64,000 nt of DNA from the NCBI GenBank assembly GCA_017601225.1, contig JAFNIX010000005.1, positions 55,831 to 119,830 of the forward strand, written 5' to 3'. Numbering within the stretch: position 1 is the stretch's first letter; each line of letters begins with the position of its first letter. This document shows, one piece after another, positions 6,003-63,845 of this stretch. Made by a program: the position numbers and the translations under genes. A model generated the notes under the pieces. That model worked only from the letters and a program-made list of their open reading frames with translations, was not told the origin of the DNA and searched no databases. The stretch comes from Candidatus Brockarchaeota archaeon. GTDB taxonomy: Archaea > Thermoproteota > EX4484-205 > JAAOZP01.

Positions 6003-7018
6003 GAAATGCGATTGGAATCATGCTTCTTGCAACGGTTTTCCTGACTTTTTCAACCATGTATACTGGTGCTCGGCTGGATGGGAAGACCAAGATAGTTGTC
6101 ACGATGGATATTCTGAGGCCGATTGTCTCCTCTATAATAGGCAGCAGGGGAGAAGTCTATTCGATTGTTCCAGGGGATGCTGAGCCGCATGGCTTCACTC
6201 TTACTCCTGAAGTGGTGAGAAAAGCTTCCGATGCTGACCTGATAGTTATAACCGGCCACATGGAGTGGGAGAAGGATCTTGTGAAACGGGTTGCGGAGGA
6301 AAGAGGTGTTGAAGCCGGTTCAATAACGCTAAACCTTCTTGACTTGGTTGAGAGAAATGGTACTGTTCTTGAGCTGGAAGGCGGGAGGAATATTCACGGC
6401 TTCTGGCTTCTGCCTGATAACGCTGTCCTGATTGCGAGAGCCCTGAGAGACAGGCTTTCAAGCTTGAATCCTGAGTATTCAGAGGAATACTTATCCAACT
6501 ACATGTTTTTCGAGGAGAAGGTGTCCTATCTAAAGAGTTTTCTGGAAAGTCTTTCGGAGAAGCATGGCACGTCTGGAAGGAAGGTCGTCATAGGTTTCTA
6601 CGCTGAGCAATACGTTGTTGAAGCCATGGGTTTAAAAGCAGGCGCCATTCTAGTTGGCGAGGGAGAAGCCATAAGCCCGGGGTCTTTAAGCAGGGTTTAC
6701 GACGGGCTTAAGTCTGGAGAATATGCTTGCATAGTTGTCTCCGATACCGCTTTATTGATGAGCGGGGTTCAGAATGCTCTGCGAGAAGTCTCTAGGGATA
6801 CGGGTTGCAGAATAGCCTATGTTTCAGTAGTTTCAGCAAGCGGCGTGAAGGATTACGATTCAATAATGTATTATAATGCTGGGCAGGTTTACGGTGCACT
6901 CTTATCCGAGCGGGAAGCTGTTTCAAGCGGGATTAACATTTACCTTCTGACAACGCTTGCAGCATTGCTGGTGATCGTGCTTGAAACAATAATCTTAGTC
7001 AGGAGGAGTAGACCATGA
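5996..7018 (+). CDS. metal (Mn/Zn/Fe) ABC transporter substrate-binding protein, TroA/ZnuA-like (cluster 9), membrane anchored
   Basis: N-terminal signal/TM anchor. GDAEPHGFTLTP resembles the ZnuA DPHxWxxP metal-site motif. A C-terminal TM anchor is typical of archaeal SBPs. It overlaps the regulator stop and the ATPase start. Confidence 0.65.
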   Translation: MLRNAIGIMLLATVFLTFSTMYTGARLDGKTKIVVTMDILRPIVSSIIGSRGEVYSIVPGDAEPHGFTLTPEVVRKASDADLIVITGHMEWEKDLVKRVAEERGVEAGSITLNLLDLVERNGTVLELEGGRNIHGFWLLPDNAVLIARALRDRLSSLNPEYSEEYLSNYMFFEEKVSYLKSFLESLSEKHGTSGRKVVIGFYAEQYVVEAMGLKAGAILVGEGEAISPGSLSRVYDGLKSGEYACIVVSDTALLMSGVQNALREVSRDTGCRIAYVSVVSASGVKDYDSIMYYNAGQVYGALLSEREAVSSGINIYLLTTLAALLVIVLETIILVRRSRP

Positions 7019-52404: not shown

Positions 52405-55400
52405 TTAAAAGCCTACTTTGAAACTATAGTTCCCTGATTGGACTCTGTATACCACGCAGCCCTCTTCAACACCGATCAGCTCAACCCCCTCGGATTTTTC
52501 AGCAGGCTTTCCACTCTCCGTCACGTTCTCCGGCTTAGTCGTCGGGATATACACCAGTGCTGAAGTATTTGTTGGAATAACAAGTTTTAGGTGAAATGTT
52601 TCTCCGGAGAACCGCCAGTCAACTGTGACTCTACCATGGATAGAGTCGTAACTCGCATAAGCATGTTCAAGCTCCCTCGAGGGCTTCGGTTTAATAACGA
52701 TGCGTTTAAACCCAACATCCTTAGCGCTTATTCCCCCTACGGTTGAGAAAAGCCATTCGCCGACGCTTCCGAAAGCATAGTGGTTAAACGAATTCATTCC
52801 AGGCTCATGGATTCCTTCTTCAGTCATGCTGTTCCATCGCTCCCAGATGGTAGTCGCCCCCAGCCTCACAGGGTAGAGCCAAGAGGGGAAGGTTTCCTGC
52901 AGGAGGAGCCTATAGGCCACGTCGGTCCTGCCGAACTTTGTGAGCGCCTGCATAAGGTGCCGCGTTCCAACGAATCCTGTAGAAAGGTGCCATCCCCGTT
53001 CCTCAATATCCCTAACCAGGTGCCTCAAAACTTTTTCCTCAACTTCCTCTGGAAGCAGTTTAAAATCAAGCGCTAGAGCGTAACAGGTCTGTGTCTCGCC
53101 CTTTATGCGCCCATCTGGTTTAACATATGCTTTGAGAAACGCGTCTCTAATATTGTTGAACAATTCTTCAAAACGTTTCGCATCCTCCGCCTTACCAATT
53201 TCATAAGCCATCTCAGCCATCAGCTTAACTACGTGGGCGAAATAGGCTGTTGCGATAACGTCTCTCGGCGTCTCCGGGCCGGCTGGAACCCAATCGCCAT
53301 ATCCTATTTCCGGTCTAAGAAACCCTACGCTGTTCTTCTCAAGGTATTCTATGTATCGACGCATGTTGTTGTAGTATAGTTGAATCACACGGGTGTCTCC
53401 GTAAAACCTCCAAAGCACGTAGGGCACGATTATCCCCGCATCTCCCCAGCAGGGTGTTCCGAATCCAGCTCCAGTCACGGGGGCAACATCAGGGTATGCG
53501 CCGTCTTCTCTCTGACCATCGTTCAGGTCGATGAGCCATTTTGTCATGAACGAAGAAATGTCTGCCAAATAGGCAGCTGTCCGAGAAAAAATCTGCGCGT
53601 CGCCTGTCCAGCCCTGACGCTCATCTCGCTGGGGGCAATCGGTCGGGACCTCGAAATAGTTGGCGCGTAGGCTCCAAACAATGTTTTCGAACAGTCTGTT
53701 CAAAAGTGGGTTTGAAGAGCGGAACTCCCCTGTTATCGGAATATCGGAGTGTAGGACGATGGCTGTTACCGCGTCTAGAAGGGGTCTCCCGGGGTAACCA
53801 GTTACTTCAACGTATCTAAAACCATGATAGGTGAATCTGGGTTCAAAAATTTCCTCAGAAGAGCCTTTGCAGAAATACACGTCGGTGGAACGTGCTCCTC
53901 TTAGGTTTGCGGTGTGCAGAGTACCGTCGGGATTTAGCACTTCGGAATATCGCAGCACGATCCTATCCCCGGGTTTAGCTTTTCTAACCCTTAGCCTCAC
54001 TGTGCCTGCCAGGTTTTGACCGAAATCGTATACGAAGACACCGGGACTAACCTCTCTGATCGATTTCGCGACCAGCTCCATCGTTCTTCTTATCGGCTCC
54101 CCAGGATGGGCTGTTACCTTTAAACCAATATCTATAATATCCTCAGTGGTAACCTTTCCCCAACCACTATCGTCAAACCAAGGTTCGTCCCATCCGTTGA
54201 TTTCAAGCCTCGCGTCGTAAGTCTCACCCATGTAATTATCAGCCTCTATGAACGGGCCGTAGGATGCTTTCCAAGTCTCGTCGCTAACGATTAGCTGTCT
54301 TTCTCCGTCAGCATATTCTATTTCAAGCTGTACGAGTAAGCGCGGTCCGCGGCCGAACCTGTTCCTTCTTCCCCAACCACCCTGGTAGCCGGAGTACCAC
54401 TCACTGTGAAGAATTGCGCCGATCGCGTTAACCCCCTGTTTAAGAAGGTTCGTAACCTCGTAAGTACGATAATATGCACGTCTTCGAAAGTCAGACCAAC
54501 CTGGTATGAAATAGTCTTCCGTAACGCGTTTCCCGTTTATGCGCAGCTCGCAGCTTCCTAACACGCTAACGTATAGAAATGCGCGTTTAACCGGCTTATC
54601 TACGTTAAACGATCTTCTTAAAAGCGGGAGTGGACGCGAGTAAGGAGGCTTTACTCCTAGAACACCCCATGGCGCTGTCTTGAAATCTCCCAGCTCTAAC
54701 GAGTAGGTCCATTCCTCATCTTTGAAATCAAGCCCGTTCCAGCCTTCCTCAGAGCACGTGTTAGCCTTCCAATTCTTATCAGTAACGACGATAAGCTGTT
54801 CTCCGTTTTCAAACTCTATGATTATCTTTCCGAGCAGACCTGCCGAACCACCTCGGTTGACGACCATCGCCGCGAAAACATTCTTCCCCGGCCGCAACCA
54901 TCGCGTGACTTCGATTATCTGCGGTTTTCCATTGTTCTCTCCAGTCCAAGCTCCGTTTACGAAAGCAGTGGCCCAATCGTCAGCTACCAGTAGAAACCTT
55001 CCACTAAGTATTTTCTTATCGCGCGGTAGATTTATTATACGACGAAAGTAGCGCGCGGCCACAGGGGCGTTCTTAAGCGGGTTGTCCTCATTAAACCAGA
55101 TCCACTTGCAGCCGTTAAAATTAGGATTCTCCCATTCGGCATATTCATCGTAGCCTATCCATTTAGCCTTCCAGTCATCCGGCTCTAACAACCCCATCTT
55201 CCAAAATGCCGGCTCACTCCATTCGGAGGGCATTCCATCCCTATCCCAAACACGCACCTTCCACCAGCATTCGCTTCGAGAAGAAAGGGGTTTTCCGGCA
55301 TACTCTATCTGACTCGTCCGGCCGGATTGAACTTTACCACTATCCCACAGGTCACCAAAATCATTATCCAAGTTCAGCCTAGTGCTGGAAACAATAATCT

Positions 55401-55530
55401 GATAAGCTGTTTGATACTGTCCTCTTTCAGGGGATTCGACAACCCAGCTTAACCGGGGTTTTGCGGTATCAATTCCAACTGGGTTACCACGGTACTCGCA
55501 ACGCAGCTTTCCAATCCTTAAGCTATTCAT
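52405..55530 (-). CDS. alpha-L-rhamnosidase, glycoside hydrolase family 78
   Basis: 1041 aa. The N-terminus LRCEYRGNPVGIDTAKPRLSWVV is the hallmark start of bacterial GH78 enzymes. A six-hairpin catalytic domain and C-terminal beta-sandwich follow. Confidence 0.85.
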   Translation of the reverse strand: MNSLRIGKLRCEYRGNPVGIDTAKPRLSWVVESPERGQYQTAYQIIVSSTRLNLDNDFGDLWDSGKVQSGRTSQIEYAGKPLSSRSECWWKVRVWDRDGMPSEWSEPAFWKMGLLEPDDWKAKWIGYDEYAEWENPNFNGCKWIWFNEDNPLKNAPVAARYFRRIINLPRDKKILSGRFLLVADDWATAFVNGAWTGENNGKPQIIEVTRWLRPGKNVFAAMVVNRGGSAGLLGKIIIEFENGEQLIVVTDKNWKANTCSEEGWNGLDFKDEEWTYSLELGDFKTAPWGVLGVKPPYSRPLPLLRRSFNVDKPVKRAFLYVSVLGSCELRINGKRVTEDYFIPGWSDFRRRAYYRTYEVTNLLKQGVNAIGAILHSEWYSGYQGGWGRRNRFGRGPRLLVQLEIEYADGERQLIVSDETWKASYGPFIEADNYMGETYDARLEINGWDEPWFDDSGWGKVTTEDIIDIGLKVTAHPGEPIRRTMELVAKSIREVSPGVFVYDFGQNLAGTVRLRVRKAKPGDRIVLRYSEVLNPDGTLHTANLRGARSTDVYFCKGSSEEIFEPRFTYHGFRYVEVTGYPGRPLLDAVTAIVLHSDIPITGEFRSSNPLLNRLFENIVWSLRANYFEVPTDCPQRDERQGWTGDAQIFSRTAAYLADISSFMTKWLIDLNDGQREDGAYPDVAPVTGAGFGTPCWGDAGIIVPYVLWRFYGDTRVIQLYYNNMRRYIEYLEKNSVGFLRPEIGYGDWVPAGPETPRDVIATAYFAHVVKLMAEMAYEIGKAEDAKRFEELFNNIRDAFLKAYVKPDGRIKGETQTCYALALDFKLLPEEVEEKVLRHLVRDIEERGWHLSTGFVGTRHLMQALTKFGRTDVAYRLLLQETFPSWLYPVRLGATTIWERWNSMTEEGIHEPGMNSFNHYAFGSVGEWLFSTVGGISAKDVGFKRIVIKPKPSRELEHAYASYDSIHGRVTVDWRFSGETFHLKLVIPTNTSALVYIPTTKPENVTESGKPAEKSEGVELIGVEEGCVVYRVQSGNYSFKVGF

Positions 55531-56425
55531 ATTGGTTAACCCACCTTCCTTTTGAAGACTCTTCGAAGGCTAGAGAATCATTGCTTTTTCGCGGTTCTTT
55601 TACATTTTTATTTGCCGACAGGATAAATTCGCAATAGGGGTCTCCTTTGGCTATGCACCTTGTTTCCTCGCCTTTCAAGTCTTCTCTAAAAAGGGAGCTG
55701 AAAAACCCTGAAAGGATGCCTCTGATGAAATGGCTTTGAGGCGCAGATTTTTCTTTAAACATGTCACACTCCCAGTTATCAAAAATCTTTATAACTGCTT
55801 TCTTCTCTTTTTCATCTAGGTGTACGATCTCCATCTTTGCCCATCCTAAAATAAGGGCTCTTTTCTTAAGTATTTCAACAGCACTAATCCCTTCAACTCC
55901 ATATTCTTTTCTATATGTCTCTAAAGTGTTCTTCCCGATTTCTCTCCCCTGATACCATACTATTGTCTGGACGATTTCGTCACCAAGAGATTTTCTTAGT
56001 CCAACCAGAAAGCCCTCTAAAACAGGTATTGGAAAAATAACTGCTCTAACTTTTCCCACTTGGAGGGGGAAATGAAAAGAATCTTCGTCAAACCATCCCG
56101 AGTGATCAAAAATCTTTATTTTTTTAACAACATCTATTTTCTCCATGTCTATTTCTTTCTCAATAAGCTTTTCTAAATCCGCTAGGTTCATCTTGGTGGG
56201 AGTCTCTAAGAACATTGAAACCTCGATCTCTTCCTTTTTTGATATTGATTCACTAAGGATCCCAACTAAGTTAAATTCATGCTTCTTTAAAATATTTAAA
56301 AATGAAGCTAATGCACCGCTTTTGTTAACCAGAGTTAATGAAATGAAGTAAATTCGATTTTCAGGATCCAATATCATCCGTGAAAGGTCTATTGGTTTAT
56401 ACTCGTTCTCTGTTGTCCTAGCCAA
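55523..56425 (-). CDS. ACT-domain + V4R-domain protein (putative small-molecule sensor/regulator)
   Basis: 300 aa. N-terminal ACT-like region (ISLTLVNKSGALASFLNIL). The C-terminal CIAKGDPYCEF matches the V4R CxxxGxxxC-F motif. Overlaps the GH78 start by 8 nt. Confidence 0.45.
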   Translation of the reverse strand: MARTTENEYKPIDLSRMILDPENRIYFISLTLVNKSGALASFLNILKKHEFNLVGILSESISKKEEIEVSMFLETPTKMNLADLEKLIEKEIDMEKIDVVKKIKIFDHSGWFDEDSFHFPLQVGKVRAVIFPIPVLEGFLVGLRKSLGDEIVQTIVWYQGREIGKNTLETYRKEYGVEGISAVEILKKRALILGWAKMEIVHLDEKEKKAVIKIFDNWECDMFKEKSAPQSHFIRGILSGFFSSLFREDLKGEETRCIAKGDPYCEFILSANKNVKEPRKSNDSLAFEESSKGRWVNQYE

Positions 56426-56488
56426 TTCAAGTCTATAAAGAGATTTAGAAAAACTATTTATTCTTTTCCCATAAAGGGATTTGCTGAA

Positions 56489-57523
56489 CTACTTCTCACA
56501 ATATTTTCGGCAATCCTCAATTATTTGCATTACTTTACGTACGCTTTCAGGCGTAACGCCTAAGGGAGCTCCCTCGCGTAGAGTCTTGTAAAGTTCCTCG
56601 TAAAATAGAGTTTCACTGCGCTTAGCATTCTCATCTAGAGCCCACTCCTCCTCTCTCCAAGGGATCTCTTCCCAATTGTAGCTGCGATCTGGAGTCGGCC
56701 TTGTTTCAACCTGTCTAGGAGGAAGATCCTTAGGGTCGAAATACTTCCACCTTATCGTGTTCCCGTTTCCCGAAAGACTTCCCTGAGTACCCATTATCAG
56801 CCAATAATCCTGAGGGTAGGCGCATGCGCGAGTAACCTCTATATCGACCTTTGTTGAGCCCGGCCCTCCTAAAATTATCTTAACATGGTCCTCAGCATCA
56901 CCCAGAGTTAGGGTCCTCTGCAGGTCGCAGAAAAATACTTCTACCTCCTCCCCTACAAGTTGAATCGCTTGGTCTATAAGATGGGAAGCATTATTGTTAA
57001 GTTCTCCCCCTCCAAACTTTTTCAAAGTCTGCCAATCCCAACGTCTTCCAAAGGAGTGCAAATATATTTTCACAAGCACTATGTGCCCAAGCTTACCGGA
57101 TCTTACTATTTCCTTAACTTTTAAGAAGTCTGGAGCGTATCTCTTGTTCTGAAATACCGTTAGTATTCTTCCAGTCTTCCTTGCAACCCTTATCATCTCG
57201 TCTGCTTCAGCCAGGCTTGTTGCCATCGGTTTCTCGCATACAACGTTTTTACCTGATTTCAACGCTTCTATGGTTTGAGAAGCATGAAGATAGCTTGGTG
57301 TTGCTATAACCACCAGTTCCACCTCTTCATCCATCAGGAGTGAATTGAAATCTTTGTATGCTCTGCAACCGAACCTGTTAACAGCCTCCTTTCTCCTCTC
57401 TTCAAGTGGGTCGAAAACTGCAACCACTCTATACATGCTGGAGCATTTCTCGAGTGCATTGGCATGAAGATCCCATCCGCTTCTCCCAAGCCCAGAGATC
57501 CCGACGTTCACCCGGCTACTCAT
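56489..57523 (-). CDS. Gfo/Idh/MocA-family NAD(P)-dependent oxidoreductase (sugar dehydrogenase-like)
   Basis: 344 aa. N-terminal Rossmann fold VGISGLGRSGWDLH and the EKP motif (VVCEKPMA). Confidence 0.8.
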   Translation of the reverse strand: MSSRVNVGISGLGRSGWDLHANALEKCSSMYRVVAVFDPLEERRKEAVNRFGCRAYKDFNSLLMDEEVELVVIATPSYLHASQTIEALKSGKNVVCEKPMATSLAEADEMIRVARKTGRILTVFQNKRYAPDFLKVKEIVRSGKLGHIVLVKIYLHSFGRRWDWQTLKKFGGGELNNNASHLIDQAIQLVGEEVEVFFCDLQRTLTLGDAEDHVKIILGGPGSTKVDIEVTRACAYPQDYWLIMGTQGSLSGNGNTIRWKYFDPKDLPPRQVETRPTPDRSYNWEEIPWREEEWALDENAKRSETLFYEELYKTLREGAPLGVTPESVRKVMQIIEDCRKYCEK

Positions 57524-57542
57524 TAAAGCCCCCTCCCAGTAC

Positions 57543-58301
57543 TTAGAATATCTTTAAAAGGTATTTTGCAAACTTGCAGACCCCTATTTTAGGATCTTCT
57601 TTCTCCTCATACTCTATGGAGATGAACCCATTGTAACCATTGTCTTCAAGGATCCTCTTAACCCTCTCATAGTCAACCTTCATGTTTTCAGAGATGCTCA
57701 CCTTACCATGAATGTGTACTGCATAAGGAACTGTTTTTGCAATGTCTTCATACGTGGACTCCCTGTAGTTACCCAGGTCCAAGTTAACCCTTAACCAAGG
57801 TGAACCCACGCTCTCCACAATCCTTATCACGCTGTCCGCCCTAGCCGTTATCCCTCCGTGATTCTCCAAGGCAATTACAACACCGTTTTCCTCGGCATAT
57901 TTTACACACCTCTTCAAGCCTTCTATCGTCCACATTAATGCCTGTTCCTCTGAATACCCCTCTGGCACGTAGCCACCGAAAATACGTAGAGCAGGGGCCC
58001 CAAGCTCACGGGCAATAATTGCTCCTTCCTCCACGGCCTTTATAATCCTCTCTCTTTCCAGAGGGTCCGGGTTACAGAAGTTCGTTGAGATTCCGGCGCA
58101 GGAGATGGGGAGTCCTCGTGAAAGTGCAATCCTCTTTAACTTCTTGAAATATCCTGATTCTCTTGAAGGAAGCCAGTAGAGCGTCATCTCTACTCCATCC
58201 AGACCAATTTTGTATGCTTCCTCAATGAAATCCTCGTAGCTCATTCTTCCATCCTTAAGATACTCCCTGTAAGAGTAGGCTGCACAACCGATCTTTATCA
58301 T
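57543..58301 (-). CDS. sugar phosphate isomerase/epimerase (xylose-isomerase-like TIM barrel)
   Basis: 252 aa. IKIGCAAYSY..GLDGVEM, ALENHGG and HIHGK motifs. Confidence 0.7.
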   Translation of the reverse strand: MIKIGCAAYSYREYLKDGRMSYEDFIEEAYKIGLDGVEMTLYWLPSRESGYFKKLKRIALSRGLPISCAGISTNFCNPDPLERERIIKAVEEGAIIARELGAPALRIFGGYVPEGYSEEQALMWTIEGLKRCVKYAEENGVVIALENHGGITARADSVIRIVESVGSPWLRVNLDLGNYRESTYEDIAKTVPYAVHIHGKVSISENMKVDYERVKRILEDNGYNGFISIEYEEKEDPKIGVCKFAKYLLKIF

Positions 58302-58380
58302 TCTCCATGCGTGAGTTGAAAAAGGCTATTTATGTTTTTGTCTTCTTTATCGTCTAGCACTGGAATAAAGGCCTGTTAGG

Positions 58381-59130
58381 CTAATACCCGATTTTCCTCA
58401 GGTAACTCCTGTTTTCCAACATGCTTTCGAACGGGCTCCCGGGAGTCCAGTCTTGTTCAACGACAACCCACTTTACTCCCTGCTGCGTCGTGAAGCTAAG
58501 TATGGCTGGAAAATCTATCGAGCCTTTTCCGAGCTCAGAGAATCTTCTGTTTTTCATGTCCTCATCAGATCCGTCTTTTAGATGCAGGTATACGATCCTC
58601 TCTTTATTGGTTTTGATGAATTGAAGCGGGTCTGCCCCGCCAAATTTAACCCAATACGTGTCGACGCATAGTCCGACTAACTCCGGCTCCGTGTTCTGAA
58701 TAATTATTCTTATTCCCCTTTGATTGTTAGCTATTTCATGCCCATGATTGTGGTAGCAGGTTTTAATCCCATGTTCTCTGCAGATTTTCCCAACCGTATT
58801 CAAAAACCCTGCACACTTTAAATAATCTTCCTCCGAACCTTTCCCACCTGGACCGCTAAAAGTCAAGTATTCGCCGTTAAGCTTCTCTAAACTCTTCACT
58901 GCCTGTTCAACCTGGCCGATATCTCCAATACCCATGTGTAATGCGACAAGCCTTAACCCGTTTTCAAACAGAAGCCTCTTCGTTTCCATGATGTCTTTAG
59001 AAACTATTTCCAGCGATGTTTCTATTCCCTCGTATCCTGCTTCTCTTACTTCAGAGAGAACACTTTCAAGGTTCTCAATTGGTTTCACCCCCCAGATGAT
59101 TAGTTGAGCGCCAACCCTTAGGCTACCCAT
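58381..59130 (-). CDS. sugar phosphate isomerase/epimerase (xylose-isomerase-like TIM barrel)
   Basis: 249 aa. GYEGIETS, CYHNHGHE and LHLKD motifs. Confidence 0.7.
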   Translation of the reverse strand: MGSLRVGAQLIIWGVKPIENLESVLSEVREAGYEGIETSLEIVSKDIMETKRLLFENGLRLVALHMGIGDIGQVEQAVKSLEKLNGEYLTFSGPGGKGSEEDYLKCAGFLNTVGKICREHGIKTCYHNHGHEIANNQRGIRIIIQNTEPELVGLCVDTYWVKFGGADPLQFIKTNKERIVYLHLKDGSDEDMKNRRFSELGKGSIDFPAILSFTTQQGVKWVVVEQDWTPGSPFESMLENRSYLRKIGY

Positions 59131-59213
59131 GGTTCTAATGTTTAAAGTTTAAACAATATAAATCTTTCCTAGTCTTAAAGCTTAAATAATGTTTAAGGTT
59201 TCTCCTGTCTACT

Positions 59214-60347
59214 TTGAACATTGATGTGGAAAAATGGGTCAAGAAGGCTAGTTCACTACTGGATCTTGGGAGGATTGATGAAGCAAAAAGTAGGATTGCT
59301 GCAGCATGGAACTTTAAACCAGTAGAAAGACCTCCATTAATAATTAACTGTCCTCCGCCTGAACCCTGGCCTGTCTTCAAATATTATGAAACATATTACG
59401 ATATGGATAAGATGCTTCTGTCTCAATTGGCTTCCGTGTATTCTCACGCCATCTTACAGGACGATGGCATGCCGTGTGTAAGAGCCAATTATGGCGTAGG
59501 TATAATACCGAGCGGATTCGGAAGTGACGTGATTATACAGCCCGATTCAGATCAGATGCCTTGGGTTAAAGAACCCGTTTTAAAGAAGGATCCTCCAGAT
59601 CTAGGGGAGTTGAAGGATCCTCAGTCTCGTCAAAGTTTGATGACGCGTGTTATTGAAACAGAAGAGTATTTCGTTAAAAAACTTGATGGAACCGGAATAC
59701 AAGTATACCTGTGTGACACTCAGGGACCTTTAGACATTGCATATCTTCTCAGGGGGCCGAAGCTACTAAGCGATTTCTACCGGCGTCCAGATTTCGCAAT
59801 AGAGCTCCTTAAGAGAGTTGCCGAAGTGTATGTTGAGTTCTCAGTTGAGCAGAAGAAAATCATTGGTGAGCCTCTTACCCAGGGAGTACATGGGACGCCT
59901 AACGTATGGATGGATAAAGGCGGTGTTAGGCTTTGCGAGGATGTGGCTGTGATGATGAACCCAGCACAATACAGAAAGTTCTGCATCCCTGTTAACGATT
60001 TTTCAGTCAGGCTCTTCGGTGGGGCTATGGGTCATTTCTGTTGCAGCGGGGCTTCAGACGGCAAGCAGGTTCTTGAACCAATCTTGTCGAGCGGAGCATT
60101 TAAAGCATTCTTCTTCGGAAGCCCTGCCAGGTTCTACGGTTTAAAAGAGACCGTAGAGTTGTTTCAGAGGAAGCGCGTATGCCTAATATGGACCGACGGC
60201 CCCGAGGAGGGTGAGAAACCCGAGTCTTGGGTTAGGAAGGTGTCGAATTCTCTAGAGGATAAAACTGGAGTAGTATTCTCAATGAGTGTCGGAAGCTTTA
60301 ACGTTGCACGAGAAATTCTGAACGAATGGGAAAGAGCATTCCGATAG
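59214..60347 (+). CDS. URO-D-like/methyltransferase-like TIM-barrel protein, function unknown
   Basis: 377 aa. Weak resemblance to the URO-D/MtaA fold. Low certainty. Confidence 0.25.
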   Translation: MNIDVEKWVKKASSLLDLGRIDEAKSRIAAAWNFKPVERPPLIINCPPPEPWPVFKYYETYYDMDKMLLSQLASVYSHAILQDDGMPCVRANYGVGIIPSGFGSDVIIQPDSDQMPWVKEPVLKKDPPDLGELKDPQSRQSLMTRVIETEEYFVKKLDGTGIQVYLCDTQGPLDIAYLLRGPKLLSDFYRRPDFAIELLKRVAEVYVEFSVEQKKIIGEPLTQGVHGTPNVWMDKGGVRLCEDVAVMMNPAQYRKFCIPVNDFSVRLFGGAMGHFCCSGASDGKQVLEPILSSGAFKAFFFGSPARFYGLKETVELFQRKRVCLIWTDGPEEGEKPESWVRKVSNSLEDKTGVVFSMSVGSFNVAREILNEWERAFR

Positions 60348-60389: not shown

Positions 60390-60734
60390 CTAATGTTCTC
60401 CAACATTTTCCTCTAAATCAGTTTGTTGGGGAGGTGGCCCGATGCGTAACGGCCTGCCTTCACTGAGGGCTTGAGCCGTCTTCCTCCTAGCGTTCTGCAA
60501 AAGCCTCCACACGGTTCCCCTTGAGACCCCCATCCTCCCTCCTGCTTCCTCCTGCGAAAGCCCCTCTAGGTCAACGAGCCTGAAGGCCTCCAGTTCATCA
60601 GGCTCAAGGTAAACAGGCTCCGTTTTTCCCTGTGTTCCAACCGGGTCTAGCCCAGTAATAGGTGGAAGAGCCCCCAACCATACTGGTTTAGGCATCCTTC
60701 CTCTTCGGCCATGCCTATGCCTTCTCCTATACAT
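60390..60734 (-). CDS. DUF134/UPF0251-family predicted DNA-binding protein (sigma-70 region-4-like HTH)
   Basis: 114 aa. The MPKP..YLEPDELEAFRLVDLEGLSQEEAGGRMGVSRGTVWRLLQNARRKTAQAL..GRPLRI pattern matches the DUF134 consensus. Confidence 0.7.
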   Translation of the reverse strand: MYRRRHRHGRRGRMPKPVWLGALPPITGLDPVGTQGKTEPVYLEPDELEAFRLVDLEGLSQEEAGGRMGVSRGTVWRLLQNARRKTAQALSEGRPLRIGPPPQQTDLEENVGEH

Positions 60735-60755
60735 TGCTCAGTAGCCTCCGGGACG

Positions 60756-60806
60756 CAATATTTATATATTTGTGCACAGTCCCAATATTCATGAAAAATG
60801 TGCATA
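60756..60806. promoter_or_regulatory. two direct copies of CAATATT-N8/9-TGTGCA (the first ends in the palindrome TGTGCACA) in the 98-bp divergent intergenic region; candidate operator. A GGAGGTGA Shine-Dalgarno lies 8 nt before the + strand ATG.
   Basis: Read directly: CAATATTtatatattTGTGCACA at 60756-60778, and CAATATTcatgaaaaaTGTGCAT at 60783-60805. Confidence 0.3.
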
Positions 60807-60832
60807 ATCACAAAAAGGAGGTGAATTGAAAA

Positions 60833-61090
60833 ATGAGGTATAGGCACAGGAATCTTTTCTACTTAACCGGTCTCCCCGGATGCCTCAGGTTCGGCTTCTC
60901 CCCTGGATGGTTAGAGCCAGCTCCTGAAGGCAGGCCGCCTGCACCCCCTCCATCTAGAATACTCTTCCCGCCGGCTTATGGTTTGGAGCAGGAGCGAACA
61001 GTGCTTGCACAACAGATTAAGATCTTGGAGTCTCAGCTGGAAGCCGTTAGAAAAAGACTTGAAGAATTAAGCGGTAAAGGAAGTAAGTAG
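60833..61090 (+). CDS. DUF5320-like small protein with C-terminal coiled coil
   Basis: 85 aa. Aromatic/Pro-rich N-terminal part (RNLFYLTGLPG..) and a C-terminal LAQQIKILESQLEAVRKRLEEL heptad region like DUF5320. Strong SD upstream. Confidence 0.4.
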   Translation: MRYRHRNLFYLTGLPGCLRFGFSPGWLEPAPEGRPPAPPPSRILFPPAYGLEQERTVLAQQIKILESQLEAVRKRLEELSGKGSK

Positions 61091-61103
61091 GGGGCGAATA
61101 ATA

Positions 61104-61352
61104 TTGCCGGGCTGGCTCTGCTGGTTCTGGTGGCTGGCATCGCCCTACTGGCATCCTTATGCTCGGTGCTTCTGGAGGCTATACCCATGGTTTCCATTAG
61201 CTTCTCGGAGAGCATTGATGCATGGGCCACTGCTGTTTGCCCTACCCCAGATGACTAGGGAGCAAGAGATAAGTCTTCTTGAATGGCGAAGAAGTCTTAT
61301 CCAGCAGGAGCTCGATTACGTAAACAAGAGGCTTGAGGAGTTAAGGAAGTGA
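61104..61352 (+). CDS. DUF5320-like small protein, tandem paralog (N-terminal frame uncertain)
   Basis: 82 aa. The C-terminal EQEISLLEWRRSLIQQELDYVNKRLEEL parallels the previous ORF. The N-terminal 35 codons are W-rich, and all three frames are open there. Confidence 0.3.
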   Translation: MPGWLCWFWWLASPYWHPYARCFWRLYPWFPLASRRALMHGPLLFALPQMTREQEISLLEWRRSLIQQELDYVNKRLEELRK

Positions 61353-61503
61353 TCGTCTAGGATAAGGGTTTCTTGGGCAAAAGGAATAGGAGGATTTAAG
61401 ACTGAAGCCTGACAGAGAGGGCAGGATACTCCGAAAACTCTAGGAGATGTCGATTAACAGTAAGACGTATATAGATGCAAGTAGTTGAGCATAGTGATTC
61501 AGA

Positions 61504-61875
61504 ATGCGGATTGTAATACCGGTTGAGGAGGATCGTGGCTTGGATTCACGTGTATCTGAACACTTTGGCAGAGCCCCCTTATTCTTGATGCTAGAGCTTG
61601 ATGAGGATGGACGAGTTTTAAAGCAGGAGGCTTTACGCAACGAGGGTGAGCATTTCGGGGGGATGGGTCGGCCTGCAGACCGTATACTTCAGCTTAAGCC
61701 AGATGCAGTCATCGTCCATGGCATGGGGCCAAGGGCACTAAGCATATTCCAACAGGCAAAGATAGCTGTCTTGAAAGCTAACTCTAACCTTGTCAGGGAA
61801 CTGCTCCCATCATATGTTAAAGACGAGCTTGAAGAATTGACTGAAGGCTGTCACCAGGCCCGTCATCAATATTAG
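61504..61875 (+). CDS. dinitrogenase FeMo-cofactor-binding-domain protein (NifX/NafY/NifB-C-terminal-like)
   Basis: 123 aa. RIVIPVEEDRGLDSRVSEHFGRAPLF..DAVIVHGMGPRA matches the Nitro_FeMo-Co domain consensus. Confidence 0.8.
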   Translation: MRIVIPVEEDRGLDSRVSEHFGRAPLFLMLELDEDGRVLKQEALRNEGEHFGGMGRPADRILQLKPDAVIVHGMGPRALSIFQQAKIAVLKANSNLVRELLPSYVKDELEELTEGCHQARHQY

Positions 61876-61913
61876 TCAGAGTCTCTAGCAAGTTTATAAG
61901 TCTGGTTTGTGCA

Positions 61914-62504
61914 TTGTGTTTAACAGCCATGCGTAAAGACTCTGCTTGGGAGAGCATAATCCGCGAGGCGTACGCTGCCTCCAGAGGACTAGGGATTCCA
62001 ACTATAGGTATGGATGACGGCTACGTGCTTTATTCAACAGCCTTCCTAGTGTCTCTACGGTTTGGACGGTTGAAAGCAATGGATGCGGGTGCAGGCGCAG
62101 GGTTTTCAACAGTATGGATTGCCAGAGCCATTTTAGAATCAGGGATTGAAGGCAATGTGCACGCGGTTGAGAAGACGAGCCAGAGATTCAAGAGTCTTAA
62201 GAGTCTTGTGGCTAAGCATCATTTGGAGGGCTTGATCACGCCGGTTAACGGCGATGCGTTTGATCATGCTGGGAAAGTTGAGGAGCTAAATCTGGTCTTC
62301 ATAGATATCGAGAAGGAGCAGTACTTGGATTTTTTCCGTCTGATTAAGAGTAGGATCCCTCGCGGCGGGGTTGTGCTTGCACATAACGTTAACCACCCCT
62401 ATGGTACTGTAGAGGTTTTTCTAAAAGAAGCCTCTCAGGGGGTTTGGAGAACCATCATAGTTCCCACTCAGGCAGGAATCTCTATAAGTGTTAAGACTGG
62501 CTAG
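61914..62504 (+). CDS. class I SAM-dependent methyltransferase (O-methyltransferase family-3/COMT-like)
   Basis: 196 aa. SAM motif I AMDAGAGAGFST, acidic motif II (VFIDIEK) and an overall catechol-OMT-like layout. A TATA-like box and TGTGCAT lie just upstream. Confidence 0.65.
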   Translation: MCLTAMRKDSAWESIIREAYAASRGLGIPTIGMDDGYVLYSTAFLVSLRFGRLKAMDAGAGAGFSTVWIARAILESGIEGNVHAVEKTSQRFKSLKSLVAKHHLEGLITPVNGDAFDHAGKVEELNLVFIDIEKEQYLDFFRLIKSRIPRGGVVLAHNVNHPYGTVEVFLKEASQGVWRTIIVPTQAGISISVKTG

Positions 62505-63370
62505 AACTTTAAAACAGGTTTTTTAACCGATTCTCTGACGCTTTCCTCTATAGCTTTAACGATGGCTACTGGCTCAAGCATATCTTCTTCAGAAAGGATC
62601 CACCGCTTATTGTCAAGCATCTCCTTAATCTTAATCATTCCTTTTTTATAACAGTCCTTTGAGTCAACCTTGGCTGAGAAATGGTTTTTCTTAGTCAAGC
62701 CCTCCAGTGAAAAAACATAGGGCATTTCTGGGGCGATTTTTATTGTTCCAATAAGTTTTTCGTGAATCAGAGTTGCAACAATGTTTTTACTCTTCGCCGC
62801 AGCATAGACTTCTCTTACCCCTGTTCCAGCTATCTCGTTAAAGATTTCTGCACTGTGCACCCCATAGAATATCAATCCGCCGTACTCGCTTTCAAGGTCA
62901 CCTGGCCCGAGCACGCTTAGGAAAACCGGCTCCTCGCTTCCGAACATCTTTTTCAACTCCTGCACAGCATCCGTGAACCTTAAGGTTGAAAAGCTAGTTA
63001 GAAGCGTCTGTTTTTCCTTGACAAGCTCTATAATCCTCTTAGCGTCTGCAACCGTGGCGGCTAAAGGCTTATCCACGAAAACCGGAATCCTGTTTTCGAT
63101 GAACGGCTTCGCATATTCTAGATGTAGTCCACCGTGTCTAAAAACCACGAACGCGATATCAATTTTCCCAATCATCTCGTTTACGTCTGAAACAATGTTT
63201 TCAATACCGCCCTTCTCCGCAACCTCCCTGTTTCTTTTTTCGTCGAACCCGAAGAGGTGTGTTGCTTTGAAACCTGGGACGTAATTTTCCATGTCTATGC
63301 CGTTCGCGATCTGTGAAAAAGTAATCGCATGAGAGTTATCTGACCCGACTATTCCTATTCTGTAAACCAT
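62501..63370 (-). CDS. Gfo/Idh/MocA-family oxidoreductase
   Basis: 289 aa. N-terminal IGIVGSDNSHA Rossmann motif and PVFVDKPLA (EKP-like). Confidence 0.7.
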   Translation of the reverse strand: MVYRIGIVGSDNSHAITFSQIANGIDMENYVPGFKATHLFGFDEKRNREVAEKGGIENIVSDVNEMIGKIDIAFVVFRHGGLHLEYAKPFIENRIPVFVDKPLAATVADAKRIIELVKEKQTLLTSFSTLRFTDAVQELKKMFGSEEPVFLSVLGPGDLESEYGGLIFYGVHSAEIFNEIAGTGVREVYAAAKSKNIVATLIHEKLIGTIKIAPEMPYVFSLEGLTKKNHFSAKVDSKDCYKKGMIKIKEMLDNKRWILSEEDMLEPVAIVKAIEESVRESVKKPVLKF

Positions 63371-63410
63371 GTGAGCGGGCGAGTGAAACGACTTTATAAG
63401 TTTTTCAGGA

Positions 63411-63845
63411 TCATTGTTTTTTCAGCTTGAACAGGAAGTGGCAGCAGTCATCTCCTCTCATTAAAAGCTTGTCTCGAACAAGCTCTATTCCATGATCAAA
63501 TCCTTTCACAACATAGTGGTCGCCGCTGCAGATTATTTTTTCCCCGATATCACTCGCGTTAAACTTTTTAAAGATTTCAGCATGAATACACTTCTTAACG
63601 ATAACTTCTAAGGATTCTTCGCTTTCCTCTAAGACTTCGAACTCGTGGGCTTCACTACTGAACAGGGCTAAGAAATATCTTGGAGACTTATCCTTTGCCT
63701 CTAGGCCACGCTTCCTCCATTCTTCCTCAATCCTCCTATTCCTCCAATCTAATAAAACGTCCAGTGCCTCCTTCCCAAATTCCTTCTCAAGAATCCTGCT
63801 CATCATGATTAAAGAAAAATCTCTGTAATATCTTAATTCGCTCAT
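63411..63845 (-). CDS. ATC-hydrolase-like domain protein (L-2-amino-thiazoline-4-carboxylate hydrolase family fold), function unknown
   Basis: 144 aa. The C-terminal RGDDCCHFLF resembles the family's conserved GDxxCxF end motif. Confidence 0.25.
   Translation of the reverse strand: MSELRYYRDFSLIMMSRILEKEFGKEALDVLLDWRNRRIEEEWRKRGLEAKDKSPRYFLALFSSEAHEFEVLEESEESLEVIVKKCIHAEIFKKFNASDIGEKIICSGDHYVVKGFDHGIELVRDKLLMRGDDCCHFLFKLKKQ

Follow-up and report, generated by a model that had tools for sequence, protein, structure and literature searches.

A DUF134/DUF5320/NifX-like gene neighbourhood in a Brockarchaeota genome: a candidate reduced module for iron-sulfur handling with a predicted operator

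The storage and trafficking of iron-sulfur (Fe-S) clusters in strict anaerobes are poorly understood, and of the NifX-like proteins from outside the nitrogen fixation (nif) systems only those of the ORP complex and IssA have been studied. IssA, orange protein and MrpORP's Di-Nase domain bind Fe-S or Mo-Cu-S clusters (PMC5524996, PMC6345978), i.e. a Mo-Cu-S cluster in orange protein and a [3Fe-4S] cluster in the MrpORP domain (PMC6345978), and the non-nif proteins of the family IPR003731 form clades apart from NifX, NafY and NifB (PMC5524996). Here we describe a locus with a gene of this family at positions 60390-62504 of a stretch of 64,000 nucleotides (nt) from Candidatus Brockarchaeota archaeon (assembly GCA_017601225.1, contig JAFNIX010000005.1, positions 55,831 to 119,830; the whole stretch is called the window below). 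The locus holds five open reading frames (ORFs; Table 1): a gene of the DUF134 family on the minus strand and, divergent from it across an intergenic region of 98 nt, two genes for small coiled-coil proteins (ORF2, of the DUF5320 family, and ORF3), a gene for a stand-alone NifX-like protein and a methyltransferase gene. A first-pass annotation made from the sequence alone had called the same five ORFs, all of which are present, and the same divergent arrangement; it had taken them for one unit with a speculative role in metal-cluster handling and had held that none of the families has an experimentally defined function. The last statement is too strong, since there are characterised members among the Nitro_FeMo-Co proteins (NifX/NafY/NifB, orange protein, MrpORP and IssA; PMC6345978, PMC5524996). 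Pfam already contains the families, and the ORP/IssA neighbourhood is broadly known; on the function of DUF134 and DUF5320, on the operator and on the tryptophan-motif family described below nothing was found in the literature searched. We lean towards the view that the locus is a reduced archaeal module of the ORP/IssA type for handling Fe-S clusters or metal sulfide, placed under a DUF134 repressor and with the methyltransferase as an unrelated neighbour. That there is a conserved functional module with a dedicated operator appears to us very probable, and a role of this module in Fe-S or metal-sulfide handling appears probable.

Species-representative genomes were scanned with a DUF5320 alignment, which gave 80 loci, and neighbouring genes were counted over 79 species-level loci. 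The loci were annotated with our own iterative profiles (the NifX profile was built from stand-alone domains) and spot-checked with Pfam and NCBIfam. They span Bathyarchaeia, five Asgard lineages, ANME-1, Methanosarcinales, Thermoplasmata, Thermococci and several anaerobic bacterial phyla. A NifX-like gene lies within 3.5 kb of the DUF5320 gene in 72 of the 79 loci, and at most 700 nt downstream on the same strand in 53. An ATPase of the Mrp/NBP35 or Orp3/4 (MinD-ferredoxin) type is present in 45 loci, DUF134 in 39 (divergent and immediately upstream in 18), and a radical S-adenosylmethionine (SAM) gene in 17. The triad of DUF134 on the minus strand and DUF5320 and NifX-like genes on the plus strand is also found on a chromosome of Thorarchaeota and on a Bathyarchaeia-type contig. 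The set formed by DUF134, small coiled-coil proteins and a NifX-like protein is conserved together in Bathyarchaeia, Asgard archaea, Euryarchaeota and several anaerobic bacterial phyla. At least two stand-alone DUF5320 genes are present in 27 of the 79 loci, i.e. a tandem pair is not the peculiarity of this locus for which it had been taken.

The association goes as far as gene fusion. In 34 of the 79 loci the NifX-like domain carries a Gly/Arg-rich tail and a DUF5320 coiled coil in the same protein, an architecture checked with Pfam (69+45 and 94+47 bits for Nitro_FeMo-Co and DUF5320), and 49 loci have either the fusion or a tailed NifX-like protein of 176-240 amino acids. The Bathyarchaeia-type contig with the triad also has a fusion of this kind adjoining a radical SAM gene. 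Another DUF5320 gene adjoins two MinD-ferredoxin ATPases, and the ATPase adjoining DUF134 in Euryarchaeota matches the NCBIfam model MrpORP with 383 bits. The link to metal-cluster handling is upheld by these partners, namely NifX-like domains, Mrp/NBP35 and MinD-ferredoxin ATPases, radical SAM enzymes and ferredoxin fusions. A variant of the tailed protein was seen in two loci (L043:5561-6109 and L088:2716-3327), where the Gly/Arg-rich tail ends in a four-cysteine zinc-ribbon-like motif (CxCPxC...CPxC) in place of the DUF5320 coiled coil.

The first described system with which the locus can be compared is the anaerobe-specific ORP/MrpORP neighbourhood of Desulfovibrio vulgaris (DVU2103-DVU2109; PMC6345978), with its stand-alone NifX-like protein (Orp8), its MinD ATPases with an inserted ferredoxin (Orp3/4) and Mrp/NBP35. 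Genes of the ORP type flank DUF134 and DUF5320 in relatives of our locus, and Orp3/Orp4-type ATPases and MrpORP occur together with NifX-like proteins in L031-L033, L036, L062, L075 and others. The NifX-like protein of the window is 55-66% identical to the one inside the Orp3/4-type ATPase operons of L031-L033 and only about 27% identical to the NifX-like protein whose gene usually follows DUF5320; it is the orthologue of the former. Our profile of Fe-S ATPases had no match in the 64-kb window. Because the window has no such ATPases and its NifX-like protein is orthologous to that of the ATPase operons, the locus is a reduced and rearranged version of the larger cluster. Apart from the ATPases, the difference from ORP lies in the control, which is by sigma-54 and an enhancer-binding protein in ORP and by a predicted DUF134 operator here, and in the DUF5320 proteins, which no report lists among the components of ORP (the description of Orp5 is that of a small [2Fe-2S] protein). 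DVU2107 is presumably a COG1342/DUF134 protein.

The same comparison raises an alternative, i.e. that the module serves in cell division or positioning, as the ORP complex does, with the coiled-coil DUF5320 proteins as structural adaptors. The NifX-like protein and its partners would then make up a complex that, as in Desulfovibrio, causes defects of cell morphology when it is lost. A role in cell division and polar localisation have been reported for the Desulfovibrio ORP system (PMC6345978), and the company of Orp3/4-type and MrpORP-type ATPases in relatives, together with the orthology just described, would agree with it. Nevertheless, the window has no MinD/Mrp-type ATPase anywhere, the division phenotype in Desulfovibrio is indirect, and nothing at the locus bears on localisation. 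We consider such a role unlikely, and note that it would be compatible with a role in Fe-S handling.

The assignment of the NifX-like protein to the Nitro_FeMo-Co family (PF02579 / IPR003731) is clear, as residues 14-105 cover positions 2-93 of the 94 in the profile at a score well above the cut-off of 26.3 bits. With its pI of 5.7 the protein is acidic; it has one Cys and several His close to the C terminus, and the ratio of nonsynonymous to synonymous substitution rates (dN/dS) of its gene is 0.10-0.17. It shares its Pfam domain with NifX, NafY and the C-terminal domain of NifB and, like them, would be a small protein that carries a metal-sulfur cluster assembled beforehand; it differs from them in that its sole NCBIfam match is to the C-terminal domain of MrpORP, whereas the NifX, NafY and NifB models gave no match at E up to 0.1, i.e. 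the protein is not a NifX or NafY proper. No nif-type Pfam family is present in the 20 kb around the gene according to precomputed Pfam labels; the observation that the window lacks nitrogenase genes therefore stands for 10 kb on either side, the rest of the window not having been screened for nif. The closest solved relatives, matched over the full length with E from 1e-13 to 2e-3, are TM1290 (1o13/1t3v, E 1e-13), PH0822 (2yx6), MTH1175 (1eo1) and TM1816 (1rdu). TM1290 has a similar His-rich C-terminal end. These proteins are without assigned function, meaning that they supply a fold and no mechanism.

The upstream region of the DUF5320 gene was compared by aligning the 140 nt 5' of the start codon in 20 loci. 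It is conspicuous that the regions follow one plan: a TATA box of the TTTATATA type, TGTGCAT(A/T)ATCACA twice, near -57 and -33, and a GAGGTGA ribosome-binding site. This two-site layout recurs in about 20 loci of Bathyarchaeia and Asgard archaea. In the window the two sites are O1, at -62 relative to the ATG of DUF5320 (its counterpart is at -56 to -64 in other loci), and O2, which follows the predicted transcription start and precedes the ribosome-binding site GGAGGTGA at 60817-60824. The exact 14-mer TGTGCATAATCACA occurs once in the 64-kb window, with about 5e-4 copies expected by our own arithmetic, and in 21 fetched loci the identical 14-mer is found once per locus, always just 5' of the DUF5320 gene. 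O1 and O2 are the sole matches of at least 12 bits to the position weight matrix (PWM) across the window. In 693 kb, 51 sites reach 16 bits or more with the PWM (shuffles give 0-5), and 48 of these lie in the promoter zones of cluster genes, which cover 11% of the sequence, a statistic that is partly circular and weakens our case to that extent, as 37 of the sites trained the matrix. Sites that did not enter the training precede operons with NifX-DUF5320 fusions and radical SAM genes and operons with ATPases, and are also found in Borr-, Baldr- and Promethearchaeota. The shared candidate operator of the first-pass annotation is thus present far beyond chance, as a unique exact 14-mer that keeps its position in about 20 other loci. 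An inverted repeat between TATA box and start codon, with a candidate regulator beside it, is the layout of an operator-controlled archaeal promoter, as which we would class this region.

Table 1. Features of the locus, with positions counted from the first nucleotide of the window
Feature	Position	Strand	Remarks
DUF134 (UPF0251) helix-turn-helix protein	60390..60734	-	114 amino acids; Pfam DUF134 69.5 bits
TATA box TTTATATA	60761..60768		26 nt from the DUF134 start codon; 2 nt from O1
Candidate operator O1, degenerate copy TGTGCACAGTCCCA	60771..60784	+	directly after the TATA box; PWM 16.4 bits
Candidate operator O2, TGTGCATAATCACA (TGTG-N6-CACA inverted repeat)	60799..60812	+	exact consensus; PWM 25.1 bits, the top score
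DUF5320 protein A (ORF2)	60833..61090	+	85 amino acids; Pfam DUF5320 27.1 bits
DUF5320 protein B (ORF3), diverged relative	61104..61352	+	82 amino acids, TTG start; Pfam DUF5320 17.9 bits
Invariant block TAAGACGTATATAGATGCAAGT, 5' of the NifX-like gene	61461..61482	+	22 nt; TATA-like GTATATAG; no operator
Stand-alone NifX-like (Nitro_FeMo-Co / IPR003731) protein	61504..61875	+	123 amino acids; Pfam 62 bits
Class I SAM-dependent, family-3 O-methyltransferase-like enzyme	61929..62504	+	adjacent gene, judged not to belong to the module

The obvious candidate for the factor that reads these sites is DUF134. Residues 10-96 of the protein match positions 3-88 of the 98 in the Pfam profile (PF02001; cut-off 27 bits), a match to Sigma70_r4_2 (40 bits) points to a helix-turn-helix of the sigma-70 region-4 type, and NCBIfam PRK04217 gives 86 bits, which is under its equivalog cut-off of 115 bits. 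The gene has a dN/dS of 0.12-0.15 relative to its relatives. The recognition helix reads SRGTVWR in every locus that bears the TGTGCAT..CACA operator, and SQPTFHR in Euryarchaeota, where the palindrome is a different one. Because operator and recognition helix vary together and the gene is divergent from or adjacent to the genes concerned, DUF134 is the likely cognate factor, and we think it probable that it is an operator-binding regulator. Repressor sites downstream of an archaeal TATA box would be expected to block transcription. Since both sites lie downstream of the TATA box, DUF134 probably acts as a repressor of the divergent operon and also regulates itself. In Euryarchaeota (L062:~2905-2931, L065, L075, L084, L051, L059, L094) the DUF134 genes are directly preceded by TTTATAAA and the perfect palindrome TTATGAATATATATTCATAA, which runs into the start codon. 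This palindrome lies between the TATA box and the start codon of DUF134 itself, and would be a second type of operator, paired with the SQPTFHR helix; the transcripts are apparently leaderless. DUF134 thereby gains a concrete predicted DNA target, and its euryarchaeal branch a second, different one.

The module can also be read as a sensor circuit and not a carrier; the NifX-like and/or DUF5320 proteins would report the availability of cluster or sulfide to DUF134 by protein contact, with the regulation of other genes as the sole output of the module. The window's DUF134 protein has zero cysteines and no obvious ligand site, operator-like sites precede several operons in relatives, and in Euryarchaeota DUF134 overlaps the gene of an Mrp/NBP35 Fe-S carrier by 4 nt, the two being probably translationally coupled, all of which would speak for such a circuit. 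In the window, though, the operator is found only at the module's own promoter, the NifX-DUF5320 fusions resemble structural or cargo proteins rather than signalling proteins, and no fusion of DUF134 to the domains of the module occurs among the loci sampled. A sensor circuit seems improbable to us for these reasons.

The second described system is IssA (PF2025) of Pyrococcus furiosus (PMC5524996), which, like the window, comes from an anaerobic archaeon and combines a non-nif NifX-like domain with a basic, unstructured segment that is rich in Pro, aromatic residues and Gly and has a single Cys. The IssA tail consists of 20% aromatic, 21% Gly, 16% Pro and 10% cationic residues and has a pI of 10.7 and one Cys (PMC5524996). 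Residues 1-50 of ORF2 have nearly the same composition (16% aromatic, 12% Gly, 22% Pro and 12% cationic residues, pI 10.3, one Cys), and MTH1175, a tail-less member of the IssA type according to PMC5524996, is among the structural relatives named above. The differences are equally clear. The NifX-like protein of the window ends 18 residues past its domain, i.e. it does not have the fused, cationic Gly/aromatic-rich C-terminal tail of IssA. The tail-like segments are instead carried by ORF2 and ORF3, two separate small proteins with coiled coils, which is not described for IssA; and the likeness is one of composition, homology between the IssA tail and the small proteins not having been demonstrated.

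ORF2 itself passes the DUF5320 threshold (PF17253, cut-off 27 bits) by a hair and over profile positions 43-99 only. Of its 74 homologues in the database, almost all are archaeal and nearly all bear the label PF17253. Common to them are the invariant N-terminal motif MGYRHRxMYYLTGLPGWxRFGFSPGW, a linker rich in Pro and a C-terminal KEQE...LE..RKRLEEL coiled coil; in the window the protein is likewise built of a basic Pro/aromatic/Gly-rich N-terminal half (MRYRHRNLFYLTGLPGCLRFGFSPGW...) and a C-terminal coiled-coil helix. The AlphaFold2 model is essentially unordered over residues 1-50, with a predicted local distance difference test (pLDDT) score of about 51-56 and a single one-turn helix at 8-12, and has a helix at 51-82 with pLDDT 80-91.

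Taken together, the locus could work as follows. A DUF134 dimer would recognise the inverted repeat TGTGCAT(A/T)ATCACA and, sitting on the two sites after the TATA box, would block the recruitment of RNA polymerase, a step to which both the position of the sites and the covariation of operator and recognition helix point. When the genes are expressed, the two small proteins, whose N-terminal halves are basic, poor in acidic residues (0-2 in 50) and probably disordered, would oligomerise through their C-terminal coiled coils, possibly with each other. The acidic NifX-like protein would bind a pre-formed Fe-S or Mo/Fe-S cluster, non-covalently or with few ligands, and the small proteins would serve in trans as the counterpart of the cationic, aromatic tail that IssA of P. 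furiosus carries on its NifX-like domain. Small proteins and NifX-like protein would then hold, store or pass on anionic Fe-S species, with DUF134 gating their expression. A tail provided in trans is proposed because the NifX-like protein is acidic and the small proteins are basic and aromatic, because the composition of ORF2 comes near that of the IssA tail, and because tails are fused in the 34 loci mentioned above; an IssA-like store or carrier of this kind is put forward tentatively. Still more doubtful is the full form of the idea, a "split IssA" of Bathyarchaeia and Asgard archaea in which a DUF134 repressor family controls, through TGTGCAT(A/T)ATCACA, DUF5320 and PFCRWFPWLPRWWW proteins that oligomerise by way of their coiled coils and whose cationic, aromatic segments, with a tail-less NifX-like protein, would nucleate or hold a pool of clusters or an inorganic iron-sulfur polymer. 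If this were true, it would amount to a general device of anaerobes for Fe-S storage or buffering, overlooked as its small genes are often uncalled, and DUF134 would be the founding example of a widespread family of archaeal and bacterial repressors.

The PFCRWFPWLPRWWW proteins are a family of Trp-rich small proteins to which ORF3 appears to be related. The Pfam family assignments of the first-pass annotation are recovered for DUF134, for ORF2, for the NifX-like protein and, with Methyltransf_3, for the methyltransferase; ORF3 remains below the DUF5320 cut-off of 27 bits, and its C-terminal coiled coil alone is matched. With our own DUF5320 profile ORF3 scores 27.3 bits (E 1e-7), its orthologue L013:6329-6613 passes the Pfam threshold with 29.5 bits, and L027:6391-6666, which has the same architecture, does so with 35.6 bits. 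We would describe ORF3 as a diverged relative of DUF5320 rather than a certified member. Orthologues stand directly 3' of ORF2 in relatives, with 80%, 56% and 36% amino-acid identity, the start codon is ATG in three relatives, and dN/dS is 0.27-0.63; because of these features and of the orthologue above the Pfam threshold, ORF3 is judged to be a real gene, as the other four are. It had been presented as a tandem duplicate of ORF2, a view that we do not share: ORF2 and ORF3 have 12 of 28 residues in common, within the coiled coil only, and the second gene belongs to a distinct lineage of small proteins.

The N-terminal half of ORF3 is Trp-rich (MPGWLCWFWW...), basic and rich in Pro and aromatic residues, with Gly at 4% only; it keeps MP-G..C-WFWW..PY, and the orthologue in L011 reads MPRGFCWFWW. 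This appears to be a degenerate form of the motif that marks the PFCRWFPWLPRWWW family, from which the half is probably derived, although ORF3 does not reach E 1e-3 against our profile of that family. Members are uncalled ORFs of 60-90 amino acids that lie between the DUF5320 and NifX-like genes and frequently begin with TTG. They read MPRGWFGRGFG...GNPYPFCRWFPWLPRWWWAYP followed by a Tyr/Pro-rich end, with a nearly invariant motif GNPYPFCRWFPWLPRWWW after the MPRG... start, and they have no Pfam match. The family is present in most Bathyarchaeia and Thorarchaeota loci and in 43 of the 80 loci overall (e.g. L008:8362-8568, L007:8363-8623, L023:6348-6536 and L030:5877-6086), whereas an exhaustive profile search of 1.84 billion proteins returned just 78 cluster representatives; gene callers therefore mostly miss it. 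The motif is joined to a DUF5320 coiled coil, as in ORF3, in L027:6391-6666, L064:6500-6742, L052:5758-6051 and L073. In the proteins P0200, P0211 and P0181 it is fused to an N-terminal 2x[4Fe-4S] ferredoxin domain, and P0197 has the ORF2-type motif (TGLPGW.R), the ORF3-type motif and a coiled coil in a single chain.

Short proteins whose motif is so strongly conserved, accompanied by a radical SAM gene in 17 of the 79 loci, also bring to mind precursors of ribosomally synthesised and post-translationally modified peptides (RiPPs), or else RG-rich proteins that bind nucleic acids; either would leave no tie to metal clusters. For Methanosarcina mazei, the RG-type motif that DUF134 and DUF5320 proteins carry has been flagged as one that may bind G-quadruplexes (PMC7565180). 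Against this, RiPP cores do not show the near invariance that these motifs keep between bacteria and archaea, the radical SAM gene is the partner of the NifX-DUF5320 fusion and not of the small ORFs, the fusions are to NifX-like and ferredoxin domains, and the proteins of the window have no RGG repeats. We regard this explanation as very improbable.

Several observations weigh against a reduced ORP/IssA-type module under DUF134 control. Besides the missing ATPases, the window is without the radical SAM enzyme that accompanies the module elsewhere. DUF134 has no cysteine with which it might sense Fe-S status. The NifX-like gene has its own conserved TATA-like block without an operator and, in this genome, may escape control by DUF134. 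The literature found on DUF134 and DUF5320 consists of incidental mentions, with no experiment on either protein. The likeness to the IssA tail is compositional, and the exhaustive search with the tryptophan-motif profile found no protein with a NifX domain. There are also signs of decay: O1 is degenerate in the window, ORF2 and ORF3 evolve faster than their neighbours, reaching a dN/dS of about 1 in comparisons of the closest pairs, L017 has a pseudogene in place of ORF3 (6271-6473; a nonsense codon, about 215 nt deleted and 23 codons left), and DUF134 is frameshifted into two pieces in the close relatives L009/L015 (5565-5905). The locus may thus be a reduced copy under relaxed constraint. 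Moreover, the sister metagenome-assembled genome (MAG) JBNAVT01 carries, besides a locus of the window type (L016), a fuller paralogous cluster (L064), with DUF134, DUF5320, a protein with tryptophan motif and coiled coil, a NifX-DUF5320 fusion, a NifX-like protein and a radical SAM gene; a second cluster may likewise lie outside the window in the window's own genome.

As a reduced and possibly decaying copy, the locus is mainly of value as an entry point, and the comparative results are the more interesting product. Together with its relatives it ties DUF134, DUF5320 and an unannotated Trp-rich family to Fe-S biology, through neighbourhood, fusions to NifX-like and ferredoxin domains and a shared operator. 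Bathyarchaeia and Asgard archaea, which are uncultured or hard to grow, share the conserved regulon, so testable predictions derived from sequence are especially useful.

The 22-nt block TAAGACGTATATAGATGCAAGT before the NifX-like gene is unchanged in four relatives, whereas its flanks vary, and is a possible internal promoter of that gene. The 151-nt gap in which it lies has no Rfam match, and its fold is no better than that of shuffled sequences (z = -0.12). An ATGC-N10-GCAT repeat 5' of the NifX-like gene was rejected as a candidate site, as it is not kept in relatives. Between the window and L015/L016, synonymous divergence (dS) is 0.1-0.35 for DUF134, ORF2 and ORF3 and 0.5-0.9 for the NifX-like and methyltransferase genes in the same genome pairs, which suggests either that a recombination boundary separates ORF3 from the NifX-like gene or that an extra constraint acts at the nucleotide level.

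The unity claimed for all five genes extends to DUF134, the two small proteins and the NifX-like protein; the methyltransferase falls outside it. Its ORF spans 61914-62504 and gene callers start it at the ATG at 61929, which gives 191 amino acids; it matches Methyltransf_24 (46.9 bits, cut-off 26.3) and Methyltransf_3 (23.1 bits, cut-off 22) and, in the PDB, family-3 O-methyltransferases (E 2.5e-9 to 4e-6). To judge from its dN/dS of 0.15-0.31 it is a functional gene. One could imagine that the enzyme works with the NifX-like protein, for instance by methylating a cofactor or carrier, given that its gene starts 53 nt downstream on the same strand, is kept beside the NifX-like gene under the constraint just mentioned in the four closest relatives, and has distant homologues divergent from VIT1 in two contexts, a faint link to iron. 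Simple synteny accounts for this: the methyltransferase is present in 3 of the 79 DUF5320 loci, all closest relatives that share the flanking sugar genes. It is preceded by an invariant TATA box of its own (AAGTTTATAAGT at 61890-61901), with no conserved operator found, and its homologues of 56-59% identity adjoin VIT1 or radical SAM genes and have neither DUF134 nor DUF5320 nor NifX-like genes in their vicinity. A partnership of the methyltransferase with the module is very unlikely in our opinion, and by these features it is a neighbour with its own promoter. A TGTGCAT half-site between its TATA box and start was considered as a third operator and rejected, since relatives do not keep it.

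The methyltransferase family is narrow, with 23 matches that are all at least 56% identical. The divergent pairs with VIT1, of the iron/manganese transporter family, are found at L095:3036-4576 and L097:3041-4618, and suggest a possible iron link for the methyltransferase on its own. Small ORFs near the distant homologue in L095 were tested as DUF5320-like genes and proved not to be such.

The identical locus is present in several hot-spring MAGs labelled Thermoproteota archaeon. Its flanks in the window (52405-60347 and 62501-63845) consist of sugar-catabolism genes that are unrelated to the module, among them an alpha-L-rhamnosidase of 1041 amino acids, a V4R-domain protein, Gfo/Idh/MocA oxidoreductases and two xylose-isomerase-like TIM-barrel proteins; a flank protein of 377 amino acids has a faint match to URO-D only. 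The methyltransferase stop overlaps a convergent oxidoreductase gene by 4 nt.

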